This document shows, in pieces, positions 5,818 through 32,886 of a DNA stretch of 43,968 nt. The position numbers and the translations under genes are program-made. This DNA comes from Candidatus Buchananbacteria bacterium (GTDB lineage: Bacteria; Patescibacteriota; Patescibacteriia; 2-01-FULL-39-33). Position 1 is the stretch's first letter. Each line of letters opens with the position of its first letter. A model generated the notes under the pieces. The model saw nothing but the letters and a program-made list of their open reading frames with translations, searched no databases and had not been told where the DNA came from. The stretch is from the NCBI GenBank assembly GCA_903859075.1, contig CAIOLF010000003.1, positions 1 through 43,968 on the forward strand, written 5' to 3'.

Positions 5818-5881
5818 ATGGCTTAAGTGTTAGATTTAATTGATTTAATTATAACAAAAGTTGATGAATATTGACAGACAC

Positions 5882-5910
5882 TTGGCATAATTATCTAAAT
5901 TTGCTATAAT
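5882..5910 (+). promoter_or_regulatory. Sigma70-type promoter for GC-rich cassette 1
   Basis: TTGGCA (5882-5887), 17-nt spacer, TATAAT (5905-5910) with TG at -15/-14. Confidence 0.55.
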
Positions 5911-5967
5911 GCGACGTAGGTTAAATCATGGCTCTTTAGTAATAAAACAAGGCATTTGCGGGGAATT

Positions 5968-6022
5968 ATGCTTACATCCTTTAGATTATGAAGAAAATTT
6001 GCAACCTAAAGGATGTAAGCAT
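5968..6022 (+). repeat. Perfect 17-bp inverted repeat (hairpin) in the leader of cassette 1
   Basis: atgcttacatcctttag (5968-5984) and ctaaaggatgtaagcat (6006-6022), 21-nt spacer, no mismatch. Confidence 0.9.
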
Positions 6023-6079
6023 TGAAATTGGGCAAGAATTGGCAGAGACAGGGCAAACCTGAAGAAGGAGAACCACGGC

Positions 6080-6529
6080 ATGGCTAAGACATACCCGCAA
6101 GTGGGAGAAGTTATTGAGTTGACGCTCAATGGCGATGATCCCAAGAATGTTCCGCTTGGCATGGTCAGAGATTTCGGCTACTACTCCGACGGCTGGAAGC
6201 ACAAAGGCAAAACCGTCACAGGAACGCAGACGCGCCGGTTCATGCTCGTTAAGGTTGGCTATCAGTCCAATCTGGCTGAAGCCAGGAAGGCGCTGGAAAC
6301 GGCTCACGGCCCCACGCCTGAGGGCCAGTGGCTACAGGCCTTCCGAGCCGAGTACCCCACACCCGATGGCAATGGCCCCGTCGGCATTGCCGATTCTGCG
6401 TGGGCCGGTCCGCGCGGCTATGCCGACTTTCCGTTTGTGGGCTCGAACGGCAGGCCGCGCTTCGGCTGGCCTGGCCGCGGTCTCCGTGAGGCTTGGCGTT
6501 GGCTCGTTCCCGCCCCCGTCGGCAAGTAA
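6080..6529 (+). CDS. Hypothetical protein, G+C-rich ORFan (149 aa, Trp/Gly/Pro-rich C-terminus)
   Basis: AAGGAG 9 nt upstream of the ATG. Balanced amino-acid composition, unlike the overlapping Arg/Ser/Ala-rich alternative frames. Has its own promoter and downstream terminator. No family recognised. Confidence 0.55.
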   Translation: MAKTYPQVGEVIELTLNGDDPKNVPLGMVRDFGYYSDGWKHKGKTVTGTQTRRFMLVKVGYQSNLAEARKALETAHGPTPEGQWLQAFRAEYPTPDGNGPVGIADSAWAGPRGYADFPFVGSNGRPRFGWPGRGLREAWRWLVPAPVGK

Positions 6530-6595
6530 CTTTCGGCCTTCGGACTCTGGGACGCTGGAAGCTTTGGGCGCCTTGTTTCCCTTGAATTCTGGCTC

Positions 6596-6629
6596 CGCTT
6601 GGTCAGTATGACTAGCGGGGCTTTTTTTT
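6596..6629 (+). terminator. Candidate terminator of cassette 1
   Basis: Imperfect stem ccgct...agcgg followed by a T8 run (6622-6629). Confidence 0.4.
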
Positions 6630-6649
6630 ATTTGATTTCTATTATCATA

Positions 6650-6683
6650 AAAAAACTGCCGACACGTAAGCCGGCAGTTTTTT
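6650..6683. terminator. Bidirectional terminator between cassette 1 and the PSP1 gene
   Basis: aaaaaa-ctgccg-acacgtaag-ccggcag-tttttt: hairpin flanked by an A-run and a T-run. Confidence 0.6.
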
Positions 6684-6695
6684 ATAAAGTAAAAT

Positions 6696-7523
6696 TTATT
6701 TTTCCTTCTCAGCTTCCTTATTAACAATCGGTATCTCCACGATTATCGGCTTATCCCCTTCTTTTTCCGGATCAAGGCGGACGTTGACGCTGCCGCGCAG
6801 GACATGCCAGCCGATGACTTCGCCGCGGCCGTGTTTGGTGCGTACCCGGGTGCCTACGGCCGGTAGCTTGCCAATTAATTCCTGATAATGTGATTCTTCA
6901 TAAGCCAGGCAGCACTTGAGGCGGCCGCAGACGCCGGAGAGGCGCTCCGAGCCGCGATGGACTACTTGCTGGTGCTCGGCAAACTCGCTCGTCACGTTGC
7001 CGAGTTTTTTCAGGTGTCCGATACAGCACTGCGTCAAGCCGCAACAGCCGATGTCGCCGGTGATTTTGGCTTCATCGCGCACGCCCAATTGGTGGAGGCG
7101 GATATTTTTTTGATAGTGGCGGCTGAGGTCTTTGACCAGTTCGCGGAAATCGACGCGGCCGTCGGCAATAAAAGCAAAGGTGACCCGCTGGCCGTCGAGC
7201 GAAGTGTGGACGTCAACCAGCTTCATTTCCAGATTATGTTTTTTAATGGCGCGATGGCAATACTCCAAGACAGCTTCCGCGTCTCGGTTATTGGCGTTAT
7301 TGCTAGAGAAGTCTTCGGCCGAAGCGACCCGTTCAACAATATTGCCTATAGGTGTTTCTTGGAGCTGAGCCTCAGTCAGCTCCTGGAATTCGATTATTTT
7401 TCCCAGTTCTTGCCCGTGTTCGCAGGCAATGGCTACAGAGTCGCCCAGGGACAGCCGCAGTCCGTTGGGATTAAGCGCCATGATTCTTTCCCAGGCATTG
7501 ATTGATATGAGTATTGCTTGCAT
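6696..7523 (-). CDS. ricT: PSP1-domain protein (RicT/YaaT-like)
   Basis: Cys-rich PSP1 motifs CCGLTQCC and CGRLKCCLAYE. The track ORF starts at 7553, which overlaps the tsf stop. The ATG at 7523 (MQAIL...) or further in (MALNP...) is more likely. Confidence 0.8.
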   Translation of the reverse strand: MQAILISINAWERIMALNPNGLRLSLGDSVAIACEHGQELGKIIEFQELTEAQLQETPIGNIVERVASAEDFSSNNANNRDAEAVLEYCHRAIKKHNLEMKLVDVHTSLDGQRVTFAFIADGRVDFRELVKDLSRHYQKNIRLHQLGVRDEAKITGDIGCCGLTQCCIGHLKKLGNVTSEFAEHQQVVHRGSERLSGVCGRLKCCLAYEESHYQELIGKLPAVGTRVRTKHGRGEVIGWHVLRGSVNVRLDPEKEGDKPIIVEIPIVNKEAEKEK

Positions 7524-11196: not shown

Positions 11197-11703
11197 TCAG
11201 GAGTGGACGGCATCATCGAGGACGACGGTGTGCCGTCGAAAATCGACTCGGACGATCGCACCGGCAGGACGAATGATCGTGCTGACGGGTGGCACTGGGC
11301 TCGTCTTGCTGTTTTCGGCCGCCAAGCGATTGGCAATTTCTTCCAGCAGAGCGACTTCCCCAGTGTCATCATTTCGGCGCAGGCCAAATTGTTCAAGATT
11401 GATCTTCCGATCTTTCTCAGCCGCCAACAGTATCGGCGATAGCGCTCTGGCCCCTTCGGCAGTTGCTTCGCCTTCGCAGAGCCGATTGGCGAGCCTGGTC
11501 GCTTCTTTCTTTAGGATCATAGCCTCGTAGTGGCCGAGCCTTCGCAGAGCCTCCTCCTGGCTCCAGCCGATCTCTTTAAGTACTGGGTTATTGGCCCAGA
11601 TTTCTTGTCTCACCCTGCTTATAACCTCATGGAGGCACTCGAGCCCGAGTTCCCCCACAATTAGCTGGGCGAACAATGGTTTGAACTCGGTTCCGTGCAT
11701 CAT
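11197..11703 (-). CDS. Hypothetical protein, G+C-rich ORFan (168 aa)
   Basis: AGGAGG (complement of 11714-11719) 10 nt before the ATG. Has its own consensus promoter and terminator. Composition is plausible for a helical protein. No family recognised. Confidence 0.55.
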   Translation of the reverse strand: MMHGTEFKPLFAQLIVGELGLECLHEVISRVRQEIWANNPVLKEIGWSQEEALRRLGHYEAMILKKEATRLANRLCEGEATAEGARALSPILLAAEKDRKINLEQFGLRRNDDTGEVALLEEIANRLAAENSKTSPVPPVSTIIRPAGAIVRVDFRRHTVVLDDAVHS

Positions 11704-11870: not shown

Positions 11871-12755
11871 ATGACAGTTAATCAATTTTTAAAGACGCTG
11901 GATCTGCCGCAACAGCTAAGATTAGATCAAGAAATATTGCTTGCCCACATCCTTCATCACCCTAGGGAGCATATTTTTGCTCATCCCGAGATCAAATTAT
12001 CAAAAACCCAGGTATCTAAATTCAGGCGGCTTTGGAAAAAACGGCTCAAAAATTATCCCCTGGCCTATCTCACCGGACAGAAGGAATTTTTTGGTCTTGA
12101 TTTTCATGTCAATAATAATGTCTTAATTCCCCGGCCGGAAACGGAATTCATGGTTGAGGAGATTATTGGCTATGTTGAAAAATCAGCTAGGGGGAAAAGC
12201 ATCATTGCTGATATCGGAACCGGCTCCGGCTGTATTGCCGTTGTTTTGAAAAAGAAATTGCCCGCGGCTCAAGTCATTGGTTTGGATGTTTCGGCTGCGG
12301 CCCTAAAAATTGCTAGAAAAAATTCTCAAAAAAACAAAACCGCGGTTGAATTTTACCGCGGTGATGTTGCAGCATTGGCAAAGAAAAAGATATTGCCGGA
12401 TATTATTGCCGCTAATCTCCCCTACTTAGATAAAGACAAAAAGCGGTTTTTTTATCACAATTGCCCGGCCTTGAAGTATGAGCCGGATTCTGCTTTATTT
12501 GCCAATAAAAATGGGCTGGGTGATTATATTAGTCTATTAGAAAAATTAATGGTTTTTAGAAAGCTGCCGACGGCGATTTTTCTGGAAATCGGCAGTAAAC
12601 AGATTAAGCTGGCGCGGCGGATTTTTCTTAGGATTTGCGGCGATAAATACGATCTAAAGGTGATTAATTATAAGGGAACGGCACTGATTCGGTTGATTAT
12701 AAGTTATAGGATAGTTTCAATAAAAAAGAAACAAGCTCGCTGGCTGGGCCATTGA
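11871..12755 (+). CDS. prmC: Release-factor glutamine N5-methyltransferase (HemK/PrmC)
   Basis: SAM motif DIGTGSGCIA; catalytic tetrapeptide position reads NLPY (12414-12425) instead of NPPY; PRPETE block; 294 aa. Confidence 0.85.
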   Translation: MTVNQFLKTLDLPQQLRLDQEILLAHILHHPREHIFAHPEIKLSKTQVSKFRRLWKKRLKNYPLAYLTGQKEFFGLDFHVNNNVLIPRPETEFMVEEIIGYVEKSARGKSIIADIGTGSGCIAVVLKKKLPAAQVIGLDVSAAALKIARKNSQKNKTAVEFYRGDVAALAKKKILPDIIAANLPYLDKDKKRFFYHNCPALKYEPDSALFANKNGLGDYISLLEKLMVFRKLPTAIFLEIGSKQIKLARRIFLRICGDKYDLKVINYKGTALIRLIISYRIVSIKKKQARWLGH

Positions 12756-12759
12756 GCTT
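12721..12759 (-). terminator. Weak candidate terminator for locus B, overlapping the prmC stop codon
   Basis: Minus strand: aagctc, 15-nt loop, gagctt, then GTTTCTTTTTT. Only a 6-bp stem. Confidence 0.3.
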
Positions 12760-13393
12760 GATGAATTGTGTTACTCGTGGTGCTTTGGCAACCACGGTCT
12801 CTGGTCGGTTTGAACTGCGGCGCTATAGGACATCTGCTGTGTCCAAAGGTGGCCTGTACGTCTGCAGGCATGCAAGGAACACATGCTCTTTTCACAGGGT
12901 TGCAGCACACTGCTTTTCTTGATACGCCAACCGCGTCGTAAAAACCAGTACTCAAAGCCGAGTCAGCCTGTTAATTGCGCAGCGTTTAGCGCAATATTGC
13001 ATTACATAATACATAACTAACGACTTCATGTTAGGCTCCAGACGAAGCCCAGTTGTTGGTGGTCTGCGGATTGTCTCCGCGACCTATGTCCTCCGCCCTA
13101 GTTGTCGGGGGATCTGATAGAGACCATGCCGCAACCTCTCCTCCTCGGTTAAACGCTTGACACGCATTGCGCGTTTGACACAGCGCGCAATTGCCACCGC
13201 ACTTGGCAGCCAGCGAAGCGGCAAAGCCACTCCTTGCCGGGACTACCAGTAATGCACCTCTTTTTTTTCCGTACCGCTAGCACTAGCCAATGCGGGGTGA
13301 AACGGCGTCCTGATTCTGATGTAAGCTGAGCACGCAGGCCTCCTTTCCGTCGCAGCCGACGTCAGCCAAGGCGCCAATTCCCTAGAGGTAACA
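12722..13393 (-). ncRNA. Candidate large structured RNA B (about 650-670 nt, class unknown)
   Basis: G+C-rich island (35 G+C in 13141-13200) with no credible ORF in any frame. Perfect promoter just upstream on the minus strand. Many helices: 8 bp 13166-13173/13184-13191; 9 bp with one bulge 13061-13084; 7 bp 12974-12980/12989-12995; 6 bp 12775-12780/12791-12796; 5 bp 13348-13352/13357-13361. Confidence 0.45.
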
Positions 13394-13399
13394 TTAGTA

Positions 13400-13428
13400 A
13401 TTATAGGAAAACATTAAGAAAAAGTCAA
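13400..13428 (-). promoter_or_regulatory. Consensus sigma70 promoter driving locus B
   Basis: Minus strand: TTGACT (13428-13423), 17 nt, TATAAT (13405-13400). Confidence 0.65.
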
Positions 13429-13457
13429 TGTCTCTTGTCAATAGTTAAAAAATCATT

Positions 13458-13488
13458 AAAAAAACCCCGATTTTAAACGGGGCTTTTT
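13458..13488. terminator. Bidirectional terminator after rplY
   Basis: aaaaaaa-ccccg-attttaaa-cgggg-cttttt. Confidence 0.7.
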
Positions 13489-13501
13489 CATAGTATGAAG
13501 G

Positions 13502-14188
13502 TTACTTTTTTTCTTCCTTTTTGGTAGCATGGAGGTTATTTTTTTCTTCCTTCTTTTCCTCAGTAGCGGCAGCTTCAGTAGCGGCAGCTTCAGTAGGAAT
13601 TTCAGTAGCGATAGGTTCTTCAATTTTTTCTTCTTTCGGCTTGGTGGCCAGTACGACCACGTCAGCAGGCTCATGATGGAGAATTTCTATGGTTTTGGGG
13701 ATCGGCAGATCTTTAATGGTAATAGCGTCATCAAAATTCTGCAGCTGGGAAACATCGACGTCAATTTCATGGATCAAATCCCCGGGGAAGCATTTGACTT
13801 CCACTTCCGTGATATTGTGAACCAGCAGTCCGCCGTCTTCTTTGACGATTTTAGACTCACCGACGAATTTTATTTGGATATGGGCATGGATCTTTTCGTC
13901 CATTTTGATTTGCAGAAAGTCAACATGGGAAATGCGATTTTTTATCGGATCATGCTGCAAATCGGAAATCAGCGTCTTTAGCGGTTGCTGATTATCGATC
14001 GCTAGGTCAATGATAGTACTCTCTCCCGCCTCATTATAGACTTTTTCAAAAGTGATATAATCCAATTCCAGATTTTCATTTTTAATCCCATGGCCGTAAA
14101 GTACCGCTGGGATTTTGTTGTTTTGTCTGAGTAAAGTTGCTTTTTTACCGGTAAGTTCCCTTTTTTTAGCGTCTAATTTAAGAGTCAT
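13502..14188 (-). CDS. rplY: 50S ribosomal protein L25/general stress protein Ctc form, with repetitive acidic/Lys tail
   Basis: MTLKLDAKKRELTGKKATLLRQNNKIPAVLYGHG... The C-terminal tail TEAAATEAAATEEKKEEK is encoded by a 15-nt tandem repeat at 13561-13597. Confidence 0.9.
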   Translation of the reverse strand: MTLKLDAKKRELTGKKATLLRQNNKIPAVLYGHGIKNENLELDYITFEKVYNEAGESTIIDLAIDNQQPLKTLISDLQHDPIKNRISHVDFLQIKMDEKIHAHIQIKFVGESKIVKEDGGLLVHNITEVEVKCFPGDLIHEIDVDVSQLQNFDDAITIKDLPIPKTIEILHHEPADVVVLATKPKEEKIEEPIATEIPTEAAATEAAATEEKKEEKNNLHATKKEEKK

Positions 14189-20682: not shown

Positions 20683-22281
20683 TCAAATCAAGCTTTTTCC
20701 TGTCATCTCTTCGGGTATCGGCAAATTCATGATTTTTAATATCGTCGGCGCCACGTCAGCCAGAATCCCTGATGGCTGGACCAAGCTCAAATCAGAATTT
20801 GGTATCTCCTTTACTCCCCCGGTTTTGCCTTCCCACTGCTTGCCGACTAGTATAAATGGCACCGGATAAGTACTGTGTTCCTTGTCGATTTCATTGGATT
20901 GCGGATTGATAATTTCTTCGGCATTGCCATGGTCGGCGGTAATAATCGCCAGCCCGTCTTTGGCCAGAATGATCTCCAGCAGCCGCTTCAGGCAGTCATC
21001 TATCACCTCGCAGGCCTTGATGGTCGCTTTAAGATTGCCGGTGTGAGCCACCATATCGCTATTGGCGAAATTTATGACAATAAAGTCATAACTATTATTC
21101 ATTATCGCTTCACTCGCCTTTTTGGTTATAATCTTGGCCGACATCTCCGGTTTTTTGTCATAGGCGGAGATTCTTGGCGAAGGAATAAGAATTCGCTCTT
21201 CATTTTCAAAGGGCGTCTCGCGGCCGCCGTTGAAGAAAAAAGTGACGTGAGCGTACTTTTCGGTTTCAGCAATATGCAGCTGCTTCAGTCCATTATCGGC
21301 CAAGACCTTGGCGAGCGGCTCATTAATCGCCTCTGGCGTAAAAGCGATTTCTACCGGCAAATCTTTTTCATATTCAGTCATGGCCACAAAATGAATGTTT
21401 TCCAAATAACTGCGCGGGAATTTTTCAAAACCCGGCAGGATAATAGCCTTGGTTATTTCCCGGGCGCGATCGGAACGAAAGTTAAAAAAGATAACACTAT
21501 CGTTATTTTGAATGAGCCGGATGGGTTTTTTATGCTCGTCAATCATGACCACCGGCAGGAATTCCTCGTCATAAACTTTATTATCATAGGATGCTTGCAC
21601 TGCTTCCTTAGCCAGGGTAAATTTCCCTTTGGCTTCGCCCAGTACCATGGCGGAATAAGCGCTCTCGATCCTGTCCCAATGATTGTCTCTGTCCATGGCA
21701 TAAAAACGGCCGGAAATGGAAGCGATTTTTCCGACTTTCAATTCATTCATTTTTTGTTCCAGCTTTTGGATGAAATCAAGGCCGGAATTATAGGGCATGT
21801 CGCGACCGTCGAGAAAGGCATGGACAAAAACATTCTTAAGTTTGCTTCTGGCGCAAAGATCCAGCAGCGAGTATAAATGCTCGATGGAACTATGAACATT
21901 ACCGGATGACGTCAGCCCCATCAGATGAAGCGAGCTTTTATTTTTTTGGGCATGCTCGATGGCGGCTAAGAAGGCCTTATTAGTAAAAAATGATCCATCA
22001 GAAATAGACCGGTTAATCCGAGACAAATTCTGATAAATCAATTTGCCAGCGCCCAGGTTCATGTGTCCAACCTCGGAATTGCCGATCTCGCCCCAGGACA
22101 ATCCGACTTCTTCGCCGGAGGCGTGGAGCGTCATAGCGGGGTAAGACTTGATTAATTTATCGATGTAAGGAGTTTTAGCTTGGCTGATAGCGTTACCAGC
22201 TGATGGCGGCGCTACCCCCCAGCCGTCGAGAATAATCAAGACTAGCGGCTTAGGTTGGTGAGTTTTATTTTTTTCAATCAT
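20683..22281 (-). CDS. gpmI: 2,3-bisphosphoglycerate-independent phosphoglycerate mutase (copy 1)
   Basis: LIILDGWG, GNSEVGHMNLGAG (catalytic Ser), TADHGNAE. Confidence 0.9.
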   Translation of the reverse strand: MIEKNKTHQPKPLVLIILDGWGVAPPSAGNAISQAKTPYIDKLIKSYPAMTLHASGEEVGLSWGEIGNSEVGHMNLGAGKLIYQNLSRINRSISDGSFFTNKAFLAAIEHAQKNKSSLHLMGLTSSGNVHSSIEHLYSLLDLCARSKLKNVFVHAFLDGRDMPYNSGLDFIQKLEQKMNELKVGKIASISGRFYAMDRDNHWDRIESAYSAMVLGEAKGKFTLAKEAVQASYDNKVYDEEFLPVVMIDEHKKPIRLIQNNDSVIFFNFRSDRAREITKAIILPGFEKFPRSYLENIHFVAMTEYEKDLPVEIAFTPEAINEPLAKVLADNGLKQLHIAETEKYAHVTFFFNGGRETPFENEERILIPSPRISAYDKKPEMSAKIITKKASEAIMNNSYDFIVINFANSDMVAHTGNLKATIKACEVIDDCLKRLLEIILAKDGLAIITADHGNAEEIINPQSNEIDKEHSTYPVPFILVGKQWEGKTGGVKEIPNSDLSLVQPSGILADVAPTILKIMNLPIPEEMTGKSLI

Positions 22282-22287
22282 AATTTA

Positions 22288-23862
22288 TTAAATTAAGCTT
22301 TCTTTATTCATTAGAGAGCTCTTGTTGATGTCAAATAATTTTAAGATAGTCGGAGCAACATTGGCTAAGATCGGATGGGTTATTTTTTTTAATCTTAGCT
22401 TATCCTGACAGACAACAATGAACGGTACCGGATTAGTGGTATGCTCGGTAATTATTTCTTTGGTATTCAGATTTAACATATATTCAATGTTGCCGTGATC
22501 GGCGGTGATCAGCACGACGGCTTGGTGACGCTTAGCCGCCTGCACCACCTTTTTTACATAACCATCGACGGCCCTGACGGTCTTAATGGCCGCCTGCATA
22601 TTGCCGGTATGGCCGATCATGTCGGGACAGGCGAAATTGACGCAGATGAAATCATACTTGGGCAGCGCGCTTAAGATTTTGGCAGTGATTCTTGCCGTGG
22701 ACATCGCCGGCGTGCAGTCGTACGATTTTACCATCGGCGATGGGATATTGATGCGGTCCTCGCCATTAACCGGCGCGGCGTAGCCGCCATTAAAAAAGAA
22801 GGTGACATGGGCGTATTTTTCGCTTTCCGCCATATAAAGCTGCTTGGTCTGATGCAAAAGCATCGGTAAAGTCTCTTTAACGTCTTCAGACGGATAGGCG
22901 GACAGGATACTATCCAGATCCGGGCCAAAATCAGTCAGGGCCACAAATTGGATGTTTTTTAATATTTTTTTCCGTTTGTACTTCGGGGAGCCGGGATTCT
23001 TACTTTCAAAATAGGGCTGAACAAATGGCTTGGCTAATTGCCTGGCCCGGTCTGAGCGCAGATTAAAAAAGATAATAGCGTCATTATCGCTGATGCGCGG
23101 CGTCAGCTTGCCTTTGCGCCAGATAACGATCGGCTCAATGAATTCGTCGGTGATGTTGGCATTATAGGCGCGGGTAATTCCTTCCTGAGGACTGCTGGCC
23201 CGATGCTCGGCATGATTCGAGGTCATGGCATTATAGGCGCGGATAGTGCGATCCCAGGATTTTTTGCGGTCCATAGCGTAAAATCTGCCTATTACCGTGC
23301 AGATTATCTCATTCGGGCGCAGGACCCGTTCCAGCGCCATGATTGATTTTAGAGCGGAACGCGGCGGCGAATCGCGGCCGTCAGTAAATAGGTGCAGATA
23401 AATTTTTTTAATTTGCTGATGTCTGGCAAACATCAGCAGTGCCAATAAATGATCAGGATCGCTATGCGGACTCTGGCCATTGCTGAGCAGGCCCATGATA
23501 TGCAGGGCGGATTTATTATTTTTGACATGATTAGAAGCGGAGATAAAAGCCGGATTCTTGAAAAACTGGCCGGTATTTATCTGCTTGGATATCTTTACCA
23601 CATCCTGGTCGACGATTCTGCCCGCGCCAAGATTCATATGTCCCGCCTCGGAATTGCCGACTTGTTGCGGCGGCACGCCGACGCATTTTCCGGAAGCGCA
23701 CAACTGGGTCCAAGGATATTTTTTGTACAAAGAATTGATGAATGGCGGCTGAACCAAAAAAATCGGGTTGCTGGCATCATTTTTGCCAATACCCCAACCG
23801 TCGAGGATAAGTAAGATTACTTTTTTGTGATTTTTTTGTTTTTTAGTATTCTTCCTAGCCAT
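22288..23862 (-). CDS. gpmI: 2,3-bisphosphoglycerate-independent phosphoglycerate mutase (copy 2, divergent tandem paralog)
   Basis: LLILDGWG, GNSEAGHMNLGAG, TADHGNIE. Lys-rich N-terminal extension. Confidence 0.9.
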   Translation of the reverse strand: MARKNTKKQKNHKKVILLILDGWGIGKNDASNPIFLVQPPFINSLYKKYPWTQLCASGKCVGVPPQQVGNSEAGHMNLGAGRIVDQDVVKISKQINTGQFFKNPAFISASNHVKNNKSALHIMGLLSNGQSPHSDPDHLLALLMFARHQQIKKIYLHLFTDGRDSPPRSALKSIMALERVLRPNEIICTVIGRFYAMDRKKSWDRTIRAYNAMTSNHAEHRASSPQEGITRAYNANITDEFIEPIVIWRKGKLTPRISDNDAIIFFNLRSDRARQLAKPFVQPYFESKNPGSPKYKRKKILKNIQFVALTDFGPDLDSILSAYPSEDVKETLPMLLHQTKQLYMAESEKYAHVTFFFNGGYAAPVNGEDRINIPSPMVKSYDCTPAMSTARITAKILSALPKYDFICVNFACPDMIGHTGNMQAAIKTVRAVDGYVKKVVQAAKRHQAVVLITADHGNIEYMLNLNTKEIITEHTTNPVPFIVVCQDKLRLKKITHPILANVAPTILKLFDINKSSLMNKESLI

Positions 23863-31623: not shown

Positions 31624-32886
31624 TTAAATACTCATTTGTAATTCATTCTCTAGCATCTGATAGCTCAACTCTCCTTTGAATAGCGCCCATTTTTCGTATT
31701 TTTTTTCTTGATCAAAAAATTTGTTCGCGTAAATATAGTAGTTATTACGGTATTTTTCCGGTGTCAGATTCAGCATGACGGAGTTGGCTCCGGCCAAAAA
31801 CGCCTGCTGCCGGAATTCCATGCCATAAAGCGTTTCCATGGCAGTTGTTACGGGTATCCGGGCACTGGGCACTGTCAGCCGCATCGTGGCAATAACTTTT
31901 AAAATAATCTTAGAATCTATCACCTGCTCATTTAGTAGCGGCGTATTAGCTGATGGTACCAACGGCCCCATTGAAGGCATAAACTGTCCAATGTCTTTCA
32001 TCGTCAGGATATCATCGGCTAAATCGCCAGTCGTCTGGCCGGGTAGTCCGATAATCGGACCGGTAGAAATAATATAGCCCAACTGTTTTAATTCCTTAAT
32101 GCGATTCAATCTCTCAGCCAACGACTCACCATCATGCATCCTGGCATAAATTTCCGGATTGGATGATTCAAACCGCATCAAAATTCCATTAGCTCCGGCT
32201 TGCTTTAATTTCTGATAAAGTTCTATTTCCCTGTCGCCGATGCTCAGGTATAGGAAAACCCGGCATCTTTCTTTTATCCCTGAAACTATATCCAGCAATT
32301 TCTGCTCATCATACCAGTCATCTTCGCCTGATTGCAGTACTAATAATTTATAACCCTTGTCATTTACCGCTTTGACCGCCGTACAAATAATCTCCTCCGG
32401 CTCCAGGCGATAGGTGATTTTCTCTTTATTATCCCGCCGCAAACCGCAGTAAAGGCAATTGTTTTTGCAATTGTTGGAAAACTCAATTATCCCATGGACG
32501 CAGATATGGTCTTTGATGCTGGTTTTTCTGATAATGTTAGCCTCACTGTAAAGCGCTCGTAGCGATTTTTCATCCTCAAGTGACAGCAAATAAACAATCT
32601 CCTCCTTAGTCAAATCGCGTTGCCCCCTGGCTGACAAAATTTCTTTCAATTTACTATCAATAATCTCCGGGTTAATATCCTGATAATGGCCCAACAAAGA
32701 AAAAATTTCTCGCGCTTCTAGATCATCTATTTTTTTTATCAAAAAATCAGCAGTGGTCAGGACCCAGTCGCCGGGAGATAATGGTTCAGTAGTGCCGATA
32801 CGGACTGATTGCCGGCGGCCATTATTGTCAATCTCAGCAATTGTGCCGTTAGTATTTATAACTTTAGCTGGTAAAGTAATACACAT
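31624..32886 (-). CDS. Fusion protein: HypC/HupF-like N-terminal domain + HydE-like radical SAM enzyme
   Basis: aa 1-65 MCITLPAKVI...GDWVLTTADFLIKKIDDLEARE resembles HypC. aa 130-420 resemble HydE-type radical SAM: CKNNCLYCGLRRDN (CX3CX2C at 32446-32469), VLQSGED, GLPGQT, PVTTAME. Confidence 0.8.
   Translation of the reverse strand: MCITLPAKVINTNGTIAEIDNNGRRQSVRIGTTEPLSPGDWVLTTADFLIKKIDDLEAREIFSLLGHYQDINPEIIDSKLKEILSARGQRDLTKEEIVYLLSLEDEKSLRALYSEANIIRKTSIKDHICVHGIIEFSNNCKNNCLYCGLRRDNKEKITYRLEPEEIICTAVKAVNDKGYKLLVLQSGEDDWYDEQKLLDIVSGIKERCRVFLYLSIGDREIELYQKLKQAGANGILMRFESSNPEIYARMHDGESLAERLNRIKELKQLGYIISTGPIIGLPGQTTGDLADDILTMKDIGQFMPSMGPLVPSANTPLLNEQVIDSKIILKVIATMRLTVPSARIPVTTAMETLYGMEFRQQAFLAGANSVMLNLTPEKYRNNYYIYANKFFDQEKKYEKWALFKGELSYQMLENELQMSI

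Follow-up and report, generated by a model that had tools for sequence, protein, structure and literature searches.

What kind of gene, if any, fills the G+C-rich gap between the convergent genes prmC (11871-12755, plus strand) and rplY (13502-14188, minus strand) of a Candidatus Buchananbacteria bacterium was asked here on 43,968 nucleotides (nt) of contig CAIOLF010000003.1, the whole stretch of DNA analysed and called the window below. An original prediction, made from this sequence alone, had proposed a purely non-coding structured RNA on the minus strand. The gap was found to hold a single minus-strand unit, the element of this study (12722-13393, predicted transcript of about 670 nt), as indicated by its promoter and terminator bounds, its folding energy (z = -4.0) and its homology to three related contigs, L014, L017 and L022. 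Its best-conserved block, absent from the original prediction, is a ribosome-binding site followed by an open reading frame (ORF) of 8-9 codons, the mini-ORF (13146-13098 together), and this conserved pair speaks against a purely non-coding RNA. The reading we favour, which we hold to be about evenly balanced between right and wrong, is a dual-function, translation-coupled RNA that stands alone, is both structured and translated, and is modulated by the ribosome on the mini-ORF, perhaps through pausing.

The predicted ends of the transcript are well defined. The intrinsic terminator of rplY (13457-13490, minus strand), detected by the terminator scan, forms the upstream boundary of the element. 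It is followed by a promoter (13400-13428, minus strand) with the -35 hexamer TTGACT (13428-13423), a 17-nt spacer and the -10 hexamer TATAAT (13405-13400), which matches the consensus at 11 of 12 positions; both this promoter and its place right after the rplY terminator had been read correctly in the original prediction. From the promoter position, transcription is predicted to start near 13393. At the 3′ end of the element, sequence, local fold and inverted repeat I6 revealed an intrinsic terminator that had not been recognised before (12722-12760, minus strand), comprising the stem CAAGCUC...GAGCUUG (12760-12732) and then UUUCUUUUUU (12731-12722). It escapes the terminator scan tool because its loop is 15 nt long, and it extends into the final codons of prmC (stop at 12753-12755). 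The element thus looks like an independent transcription unit, in which a near-consensus sigma-70-type promoter would drive, and an intrinsic terminator would end, a minus-strand transcript. As a separate observation, prmC encodes 294 amino acids (aa) here versus 278-282 aa in relatives, and its extra C-terminal codons enter the terminator stem of the element (12712-12760).

The nearest named genomes are Patescibacteria, and the ribosomal protein L25 encoded by rplY is 62% identical to that of one Candidatus Buchananbacteria genome. No element homologue was found by nhmmer and blastn at 13 more distant Patescibacteria rplY loci, most of which have no comparable gap after rplY. One distant metagenome-assembled genome labelled as Saccharibacteria carries 1.5 kb after rplY without an ORF of at least 90 aa and without an Rfam match (L009, 6697-8235). 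Closer relatives were collected as contigs encoding near homologues of L25 and PrmC, and their gaps fell into two kinds. In L014, L017 and L022/L023/L024 the gap measures 790-830 nt and is homologous to the window element, whereas in L015/L016, L019-L021 and the P0003 contigs it measures 41-85 nt and holds only a single bidirectional-looking terminator, the hairpin equivalent to the rplY terminator being its sole content. The homologues occupy the same convergent rplY/prmC gap (L014 4322-5053, L017 1297-1960 and L022 6518-5850). The homologue collection that had been suggested with the original prediction yielded three related contigs in which promoter and terminator are kept: an 11/12 promoter stands at the homologous place in each, a terminator hairpin with U tract ends all four copies (GCUCGAC...GCCGAGC plus U tract in L014, L017 and L022), and element length is steady at 660-730 nt. 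The earlier claim of a transcribed locus of its own is accordingly supported as a predicted independent unit with conserved promoter and terminator and without a normal protein.

The position of the element between convergent genes, with its terminator overlapping the prmC 3′ end, also suits a cis-acting antisense or insulator that controls prmC read-through or 3′-end stability, its sequence content being minor. In line with this, prmC is 12-16 residues longer than in relatives and, on reading the filled sites, has no terminator of its own there. In relatives, nevertheless, a single bidirectional terminator within 41-85 nt suffices, and an insulator would not need the conserved internal blocks, SD site and mini-ORF described below. 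This explanation was judged very unlikely.

The presence of the element was patchy. In an L25 tree of the seven-member clade, written ((L017+,L022+),L019-),((P0003-,L015-),(L014+,window+)) with plus and minus for presence and absence, three sister lineages have a short gap in place of the element, and the L25 proteins of element-bearing lineages are only 72-75% identical to each other. The tree pattern leaves two histories: presence in the ancestor of the clade followed by two losses, or two separate gains at one and the same site. On either history the element is dispensable and old within a small clade. As three close sister lineages lack it, it is a small-clade accessory gene rather than a widespread RNA, so its likening to OLE, GOLLD and ROOL in the original prediction did not hold. 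Exact-pattern scans found no match to a conserved 24-mer in metagenome contigs or to a related 21-mer in viral contigs. By these comparisons the element is the founding member of what appears to be a small family restricted to one Patescibacteria clade.

Patchiness would likewise fit a foreign gene or mobile element in decay, its promoter being a chance occurrence. The element resembles two other G+C-rich islands of the window, ORF149 and ORF168 (see below), in its G+C content above the flanks and its use of Shine-Dalgarno (SD) sites, all three islands having GGAG-type sites, and it is flanked by an imperfect AT-rich 31-nt direct repeat, D1, with 71% identity. Promoter, terminator, length and internal blocks are, however, kept across lineages whose L25 proteins have diverged to the extent given above, and no protein-family match and no match in phage and plasmid collections (blastn) was found. 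With a single copy in the window (self-blast), no terminal inverted repeats at the element and no target duplication on comparing filled and empty sites, an insertion sequence or miniature inverted-repeat transposable element was rejected. A decaying remnant was thus considered extremely improbable.

The mini-ORF (13098-13127, minus strand; ATG GTC TCT ATC AGA TCC CCC GAC AAC TAG) is the only ORF common to all four copies. It begins about 270 nt from the RNA 5′ end and follows the pattern M-x-x-I-R-(S/A)-P-(D)-N-stop, the peptides being MVSIRSPDN in the window, MISIRSPN in L014, MNPIRAPN in L017 and MNPIRSPN in L022. Its SD site, GAGGAGGAGAGG (13135-13146, minus strand), contains a GGAGG upstream of the AUG, and GGAGG stands 3-12 nt ahead of the AUG in all four copies. 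Since an SD-like match precedes only 8 of the 37 core genes of the window even with a loose criterion, this ribosome-binding site stands out, and the mini-ORF would be translated from a strong site. Two copies use AGA for Arg and the other two CGG, the sole indel is 3 nt long, so that the extra codon of the window copy preserves the frame, and the stop is UGA in L014 and UAG in the others at the same codon position. These three features argue for coding constraint on the mini-ORF.

SD-like sequence is not confined to the mini-ORF. The sense strand of the elements carries 2.7-6 SD-like hexamers per kb, compared with 0.35 per kb per strand elsewhere in the window, and AAGGAG is enriched in the elements over dinucleotide shuffles. 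One such site, an orphan AAGGAGG (13339-13345, minus strand), was seen on direct reading to lack a conserved start codon after it; AAGGAGG(U) recurs at RNA position 50-80 in all four copies, each time without a following start codon. These motifs, two to four AAGGAG(G) per RNA, mostly without a start codon and some 8-17 times as dense as elsewhere in the window, in a genome that makes little use of SD sites, would fit a purely non-coding structured RNA in which the SD-like sequence, AUG and stop form an untranslated motif, for example a protein- or 16S-binding purine tract. The significant folding stability (see below) and the conservation of the mini-ORF block at all codon positions point the same way. 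The synonymous Arg codons, the frame-preserving indel and the alternative stops at one codon are instead what coding constraint predicts, and a local hairpin considered for the AGA/CGG change fails in L017 and L022 when their sequences are read. An RNA-only element was therefore regarded as unlikely.

The mini-ORF pattern was also sought outside the clade. A codon-degenerate scan gave three GC-rich matches ending in TGG (Trp), which were taken to lie inside longer ORFs, and one AT-rich metagenome locus encoding MNFIRAPN and a stop behind an SD site (L028 3052-3078, minus strand, the same as L030 985-1011). About 250 nt downstream of this locus is a gene that, on reading its sequence, encodes a product with a signal-peptide-like N-terminus. 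A looser pattern (GGAG with a 4-13-nt spacer) added one viral locus with an SD site, encoding MNQIRAPN and a stop (L032 1738-1764). A scrambled-peptide control gave 0 matches versus 1, and the match number fits a rough estimate from information content. The look-alikes in L028/L030 and L032 were not counted as family members, their number being within chance expectation; they may be chance matches or an independent leader peptide of the same type.

If taken at face value, these look-alikes in unrelated AT-rich contigs would favour a micropeptide mRNA, whose product would be the peptide of 8-9 residues and whose long untranslated 5′ and 3′ regions would serve regulation. So would the mini-ORF with its SD site being the most conserved block and the conservation of the C-terminal Asn. 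Against it stand the chance-level number of the look-alikes, the roughly 640 nt of flanking sequence long kept at similar length in small genomes, with further blocks and hairpins, and the lack of an MccB/ThiF-like modifying enzyme among the window proteins scanned. We consider this possibility distinctly unlikely.

Outside the mini-ORF, little coding capacity was detected. Region 12756-13400 has 53.2% G+C versus 45.2% for the whole window, within the top 3% of same-size windows, the maximum of the window being elsewhere (58% at 5950-6600). The counts given with the original prediction for two 60-mers were exact (35 of 60 G+C at 13141-13200 and 20 of 60 at 6661-6720), and the G+C content of all four copies is 3-8 points above that of their respective flanks. 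Every frame across the element region contains 5-17 stops, the longest listed ORF there has 83 aa, a Pfam search of all ORF fragments of at least 44 aa in the region gave no match, and no long ORF is common to the four copies. The statement that no frame holds a credible ORF was thus right for long ORFs and missed the short one with its ribosome-binding site. Four further coding candidates, namely a UUG ORF following the purine-rich 5′ motif, one following the orphan SD, one with an AUG start behind the GGAGCC hairpin and stop-codon read-through frames, were rejected as not conserved among copies. L017 and L022 differ by 108 substitutions without 3-nt periodicity (P = 0.36), and the majority of their indels break the frame, 1, 2 or 4 nt being the usual lengths; the body of the element is therefore non-coding as far as these comparisons indicate.

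Most of the transcript would therefore be non-coding RNA that folds stably, the structured RNA being its main product. The minimum free energy (MFE) of the minus strand is -254 kcal/mol (z = -4.0 against dinucleotide shuffles), compared with z = -1.8 for the plus strand, which bears out the hairpin density noted in the original prediction; across all four copies the MFE z-scores range from -2.5 to -4.0 in the shuffled-sequence comparison. The consensus fold of L017 and L022 has 179 pairs, of which none is broken and 8 are changed on both sides, and its energy is well below that of column shuffles (z = -6.6). When the MFE structures were projected between L017 and L022, fewer pairs were broken than by permutation (P = 0.0075 and <0.0005); the same test fails for the window and L014 copies, which are 48% identical.

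In the four-copy alignment, conserved blocks are interleaved with variable, indel-rich stretches along the element. From the 5′ end, alignments A3 and A4 gave a purine-rich motif (13370-13385, minus strand; CUAGGGAAUUGGCGCC in the window and CCUUGGGGAAGGAGUG in L017/L022). The orphan SD-like site comes next, and then a small conserved hairpin supported by alignment and local folds, GGCUAGUGCUAGC (13276-13288, minus strand), which takes the forms GGCUAG...CUAGC and, in L017, GGCUGG-AAAC-CCAGCC; one of its pairs is A-U in the window versus G-C in L017/L022. A long irregular hairpin of about 57 nt (13199-13255, minus strand) folds at the same position in the four copies despite differing sequence, and the 2 double and 2 wobble changes that its stem shows between L017 and L022 leave pairing intact throughout. 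Behind the mini-ORF, alignment and local folds placed the hairpin GGGCUUC-GUCU-GGAGCCU (13033-13050, minus strand; general form GGCUYC-NNNN-GGAGYC), in which all four copies retain six pairs, every change being G-U-compatible, and the loop varies. The 3′ half (12761-13032, minus strand) is divergent: the nhmmer alignment between the window copy and L014 breaks off near there, nhmmer aligns this half to none of the other copies, and further 3′ blocks, such as CACCAUYGGAAU and UCAGCCACCG, are common to L014, L017 and L022 only.

No known family accounted for the element. In the window, Rfam 15 covariance models gave no match at gathering thresholds; with E relaxed to 10, matches fell on the rplY terminator alone and none in the element, and the elements of L014, L017 and L022 had no match either. 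OLE, ROOL, GOLLD, HEARO, raiA, RNase P, SRP, 6S, group I/II introns and the other Rfam 15 families were accordingly rejected, their gathering scores not being reached. ARAGORN found no tRNA and no transfer-messenger RNA (tmRNA) in the window; a tmRNA was rejected on this result, on the mini-ORF having its own SD site and AUG, and on the element missing from sister lineages. The original prediction had seen no RNase P or tmRNA signature and had proposed the Rfam check, which agreed with it in matching no housekeeping or other RNA family. GGA enrichment, the measure applied for a CsrB/RsmZ-type sponge, gave P = 0.048, 0.26, 0.01 and 0.30 in the four copies. A survey of the literature on structured or non-coding RNAs in Patescibacteria found nothing directly relevant.

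How might the two parts of such an RNA work together? In the dual-function reading, a ribosome on the mini-ORF would modulate the structured RNA, and a pause there is possible in view of the end of the peptide, which carries the R-A/S-P core found in known arrest peptides. The ApdP arrest sequence ...QSKCI-RAPP stalls at ...C-I-R-A-P/P, the slash marking the stall site (PMC10951233), and that of SecM ends in R-A-G-P and retains part of its arrest when Ala is replaced by Ser (PMC12992588). In A-site mutational scans, Asn and Asp were among the arrest-supporting residues for ApcA and ApdP (PMC7897499). Stalling on the mini-ORF is a lead taken from this likeness and not a test of it.

A more specific version holds that the RNA is gated by a minimal arrest peptide: ribosomes would be loaded through the SD site, one of few strong ones in a genome poor in them, translate M-x-x-I-R-(A/S)-P and stall when Asn- or Asp-tRNA occupies the A site. 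The role of signal or cargo would then fall to the stalled ribosome and not to a gene downstream. A stalled ribosome could stabilise or refold the RNA, and an abundant RNA of this kind could hold ribosomes out of circulation. We regard this gating as unlikely. If true, it would provide an arrest peptide without a regulated ORF or sensor domain in the streamlined translation of Patescibacteria. Real stalling would further mean that the I-R-A/S-P module can work in a 7-residue nascent chain, and it would hint at a role for arrest peptides beyond secretion-gene control. Even if stalling is not real, the element is a well-bounded orphan RNA gene overlooked by annotation pipelines, and Patescibacteria, where few RNA genes are known, gain an RNA family with defined ends and a clear comparative signature.

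Several results weigh against a translation-coupled structured RNA. For the peptide, RAPP alone is insufficient for stable arrest in ApdA/ApdP (PMC7897499), and all proven RAP-type arrest peptides are longer than the 7-residue nascent chain of the mini-ORF. The third positions of the mini-ORF are as conserved as the others, ATC, CCC and AAC being invariant, so constraint at the RNA level could explain part of its conservation; moreover, fold prediction places part of its SD site in base pairs, no ORF that a leader peptide could regulate follows it, and in silico masking of the ribosome footprint gave no consistent structural switch across the four copies. For the structure, the stability z-scores of the homologues are alike on both strands, and the four-way RNAalifold consensus is weak, with a covariation term of only -1.7 kcal/mol. 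Compensatory pairs between L017 and L022 numbered 8 versus 5.3 in shuffles (P = 0.19), so the covariation check proposed with the original prediction, here limited to four sequences from three lineages, was not significant. We conclude that the RNA is stably folded and that a few of its helices have support, an ornate covariation-backed architecture not being demonstrated.

Some features of the neighbouring genes were recorded alongside. The 3′ end of rplY contains a perfect 15-nt tandem duplication (TCAGTAGCGGCAGCT twice; 13560-13589), which appears as a repeated TEAAA in the C-terminal tail of L25. ORF168 (168 aa; 11197-11703, minus strand), between prfA and prmC, has 56% G+C and an AGGAGG ribosome-binding site; ORFs at its position in L014, L022 and L019 are 26-42% identical, a 5.8-billion-protein database contained no homologue, no family matched, and its single-sequence AlphaFold model was of low confidence (predicted local distance difference test, pLDDT, 54). 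It is a fast-evolving clade-specific gene inside the translation-gene cluster. ORF149 (149 aa; 6080-6529, plus strand), between the gap and RicT genes, has 67% G+C and a GGAG ribosome-binding site and matches no Pfam or NCBIfam family; in region 5860-6640 it is preceded by a promoter-like site and, in its 5′ leader, by a 17-bp perfect inverted repeat (about 5968-6024) and followed by a terminator, and it looks foreign. Elsewhere, 20683-23862 carries two tandem paralogues of cofactor-independent phosphoglycerate mutase (532 and 524 aa), and 31624-32886 a fusion ORF of HypC/HupF, radical SAM and BATS adjoining NiFe-hydrogenase subunit genes.

The element can be set against known systems that share one or another of its parts. 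The microcin C precursor MccA is a 7-residue peptide ending in Asn, and it resembles the mini-ORF in being a tiny ORF with a strong SD site and an invariant C-terminal Asn; the mini-ORF differs in lying deep within a 670-nt RNA. The window proteins that were scanned include neither an MccB/ThiF-type adenylyltransferase nor any other mcc gene product; prfA, tsf, rpsB, ftsW and two FtsX/MacB permeases were identified from the gene calls of relatives, outside this protein scan. With no ThiF-like family among the scanned proteins and rplY and prmC as the conserved neighbours, a microcin C-like system was rejected.

Short leader peptides, such as the 9-codon leaders of cat86 and cmlA, the Erm leaders and TnaC, likewise combine a very short ORF with a strong ribosome-binding site within a structured RNA. 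They sit directly upstream of the gene that they regulate, whereas the element terminates about 330 nt on without an ORF, no conserved ORF being present between mini-ORF and terminator in the four copies. A leader-peptide attenuator was rejected, as the predicted transcript carries no regulated ORF downstream in any copy. The large RNAs OLE, ROOL and GOLLD are, like the element, ORF-poor, above their surroundings in G+C and of unknown function, and at about 600 nt ROOL and OLE are similar to it in size. The element differs from them in its lack of an Rfam match, its very narrow range, its weak covariation and its translated-looking mini-ORF.

With the RAP-type arrest peptides (ApdP, ApdA and ApcA, and SecM with RAGP) the mini-ORF shares I-R-(A/S)-P followed by N or D, that is, the arrest module closest to the peptidyl-transferase centre. 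At the sequence level only, all four copies have an R-(A/G/S)-P core with Pro in the P site and an A-site residue that is permissive according to PMC7897499 and PMC12992588 (IRSP-D, IRSP-N, IRAP-N and IRSP-N). In ApdA, ApdP and SecM, however, Pro is required in the A site, where the mini-ORF has AAC (Asn) or GAC (Asp), and residues further upstream also contribute to arrest in RAP-type peptides. These have been sought as secreted or membrane 'monitoring substrates' of 80-200 residues upstream of sec/yidC genes (PMC7897499), unlike a mini-ORF of 8-9 codons without a sensor domain or a downstream gene; secDF lies about 9 kb from the element, past the gap, RicT, tsf, rpsB, rpmE, prfA and prmC genes. 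A long structured RNA with an 8-9-codon ORF that copies a RAP-type core and has nothing downstream to regulate would be an unusual design.

The dual-function RNAs are the remaining comparison, and one of them, RNAIII, is similar to the element in size at about 0.5 kb. Their RNA parts are known base-pairing regulators, and they have no sequence relationship to the element, for which no target is known. Their ORFs encode tens of residues (28-39 aa in AzuCR, VcdRP and SR7), compared with 8-9 codons here. In RNAIII/hld, SgrS/SgrT, SR1/SR1P, AzuCR and VcdRP, as would be the case in the element, a stand-alone transcript with its own promoter and terminator brings together a small ORF, which is translated, and a non-coding RNA (PMC12612679, PMC12310071). 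The element's own promoter and terminator are predicted in all four copies, and the combination of a small ORF with RNA activity is consistent with the comparative support for the mini-ORF and with the conserved, stable RNA outside it.

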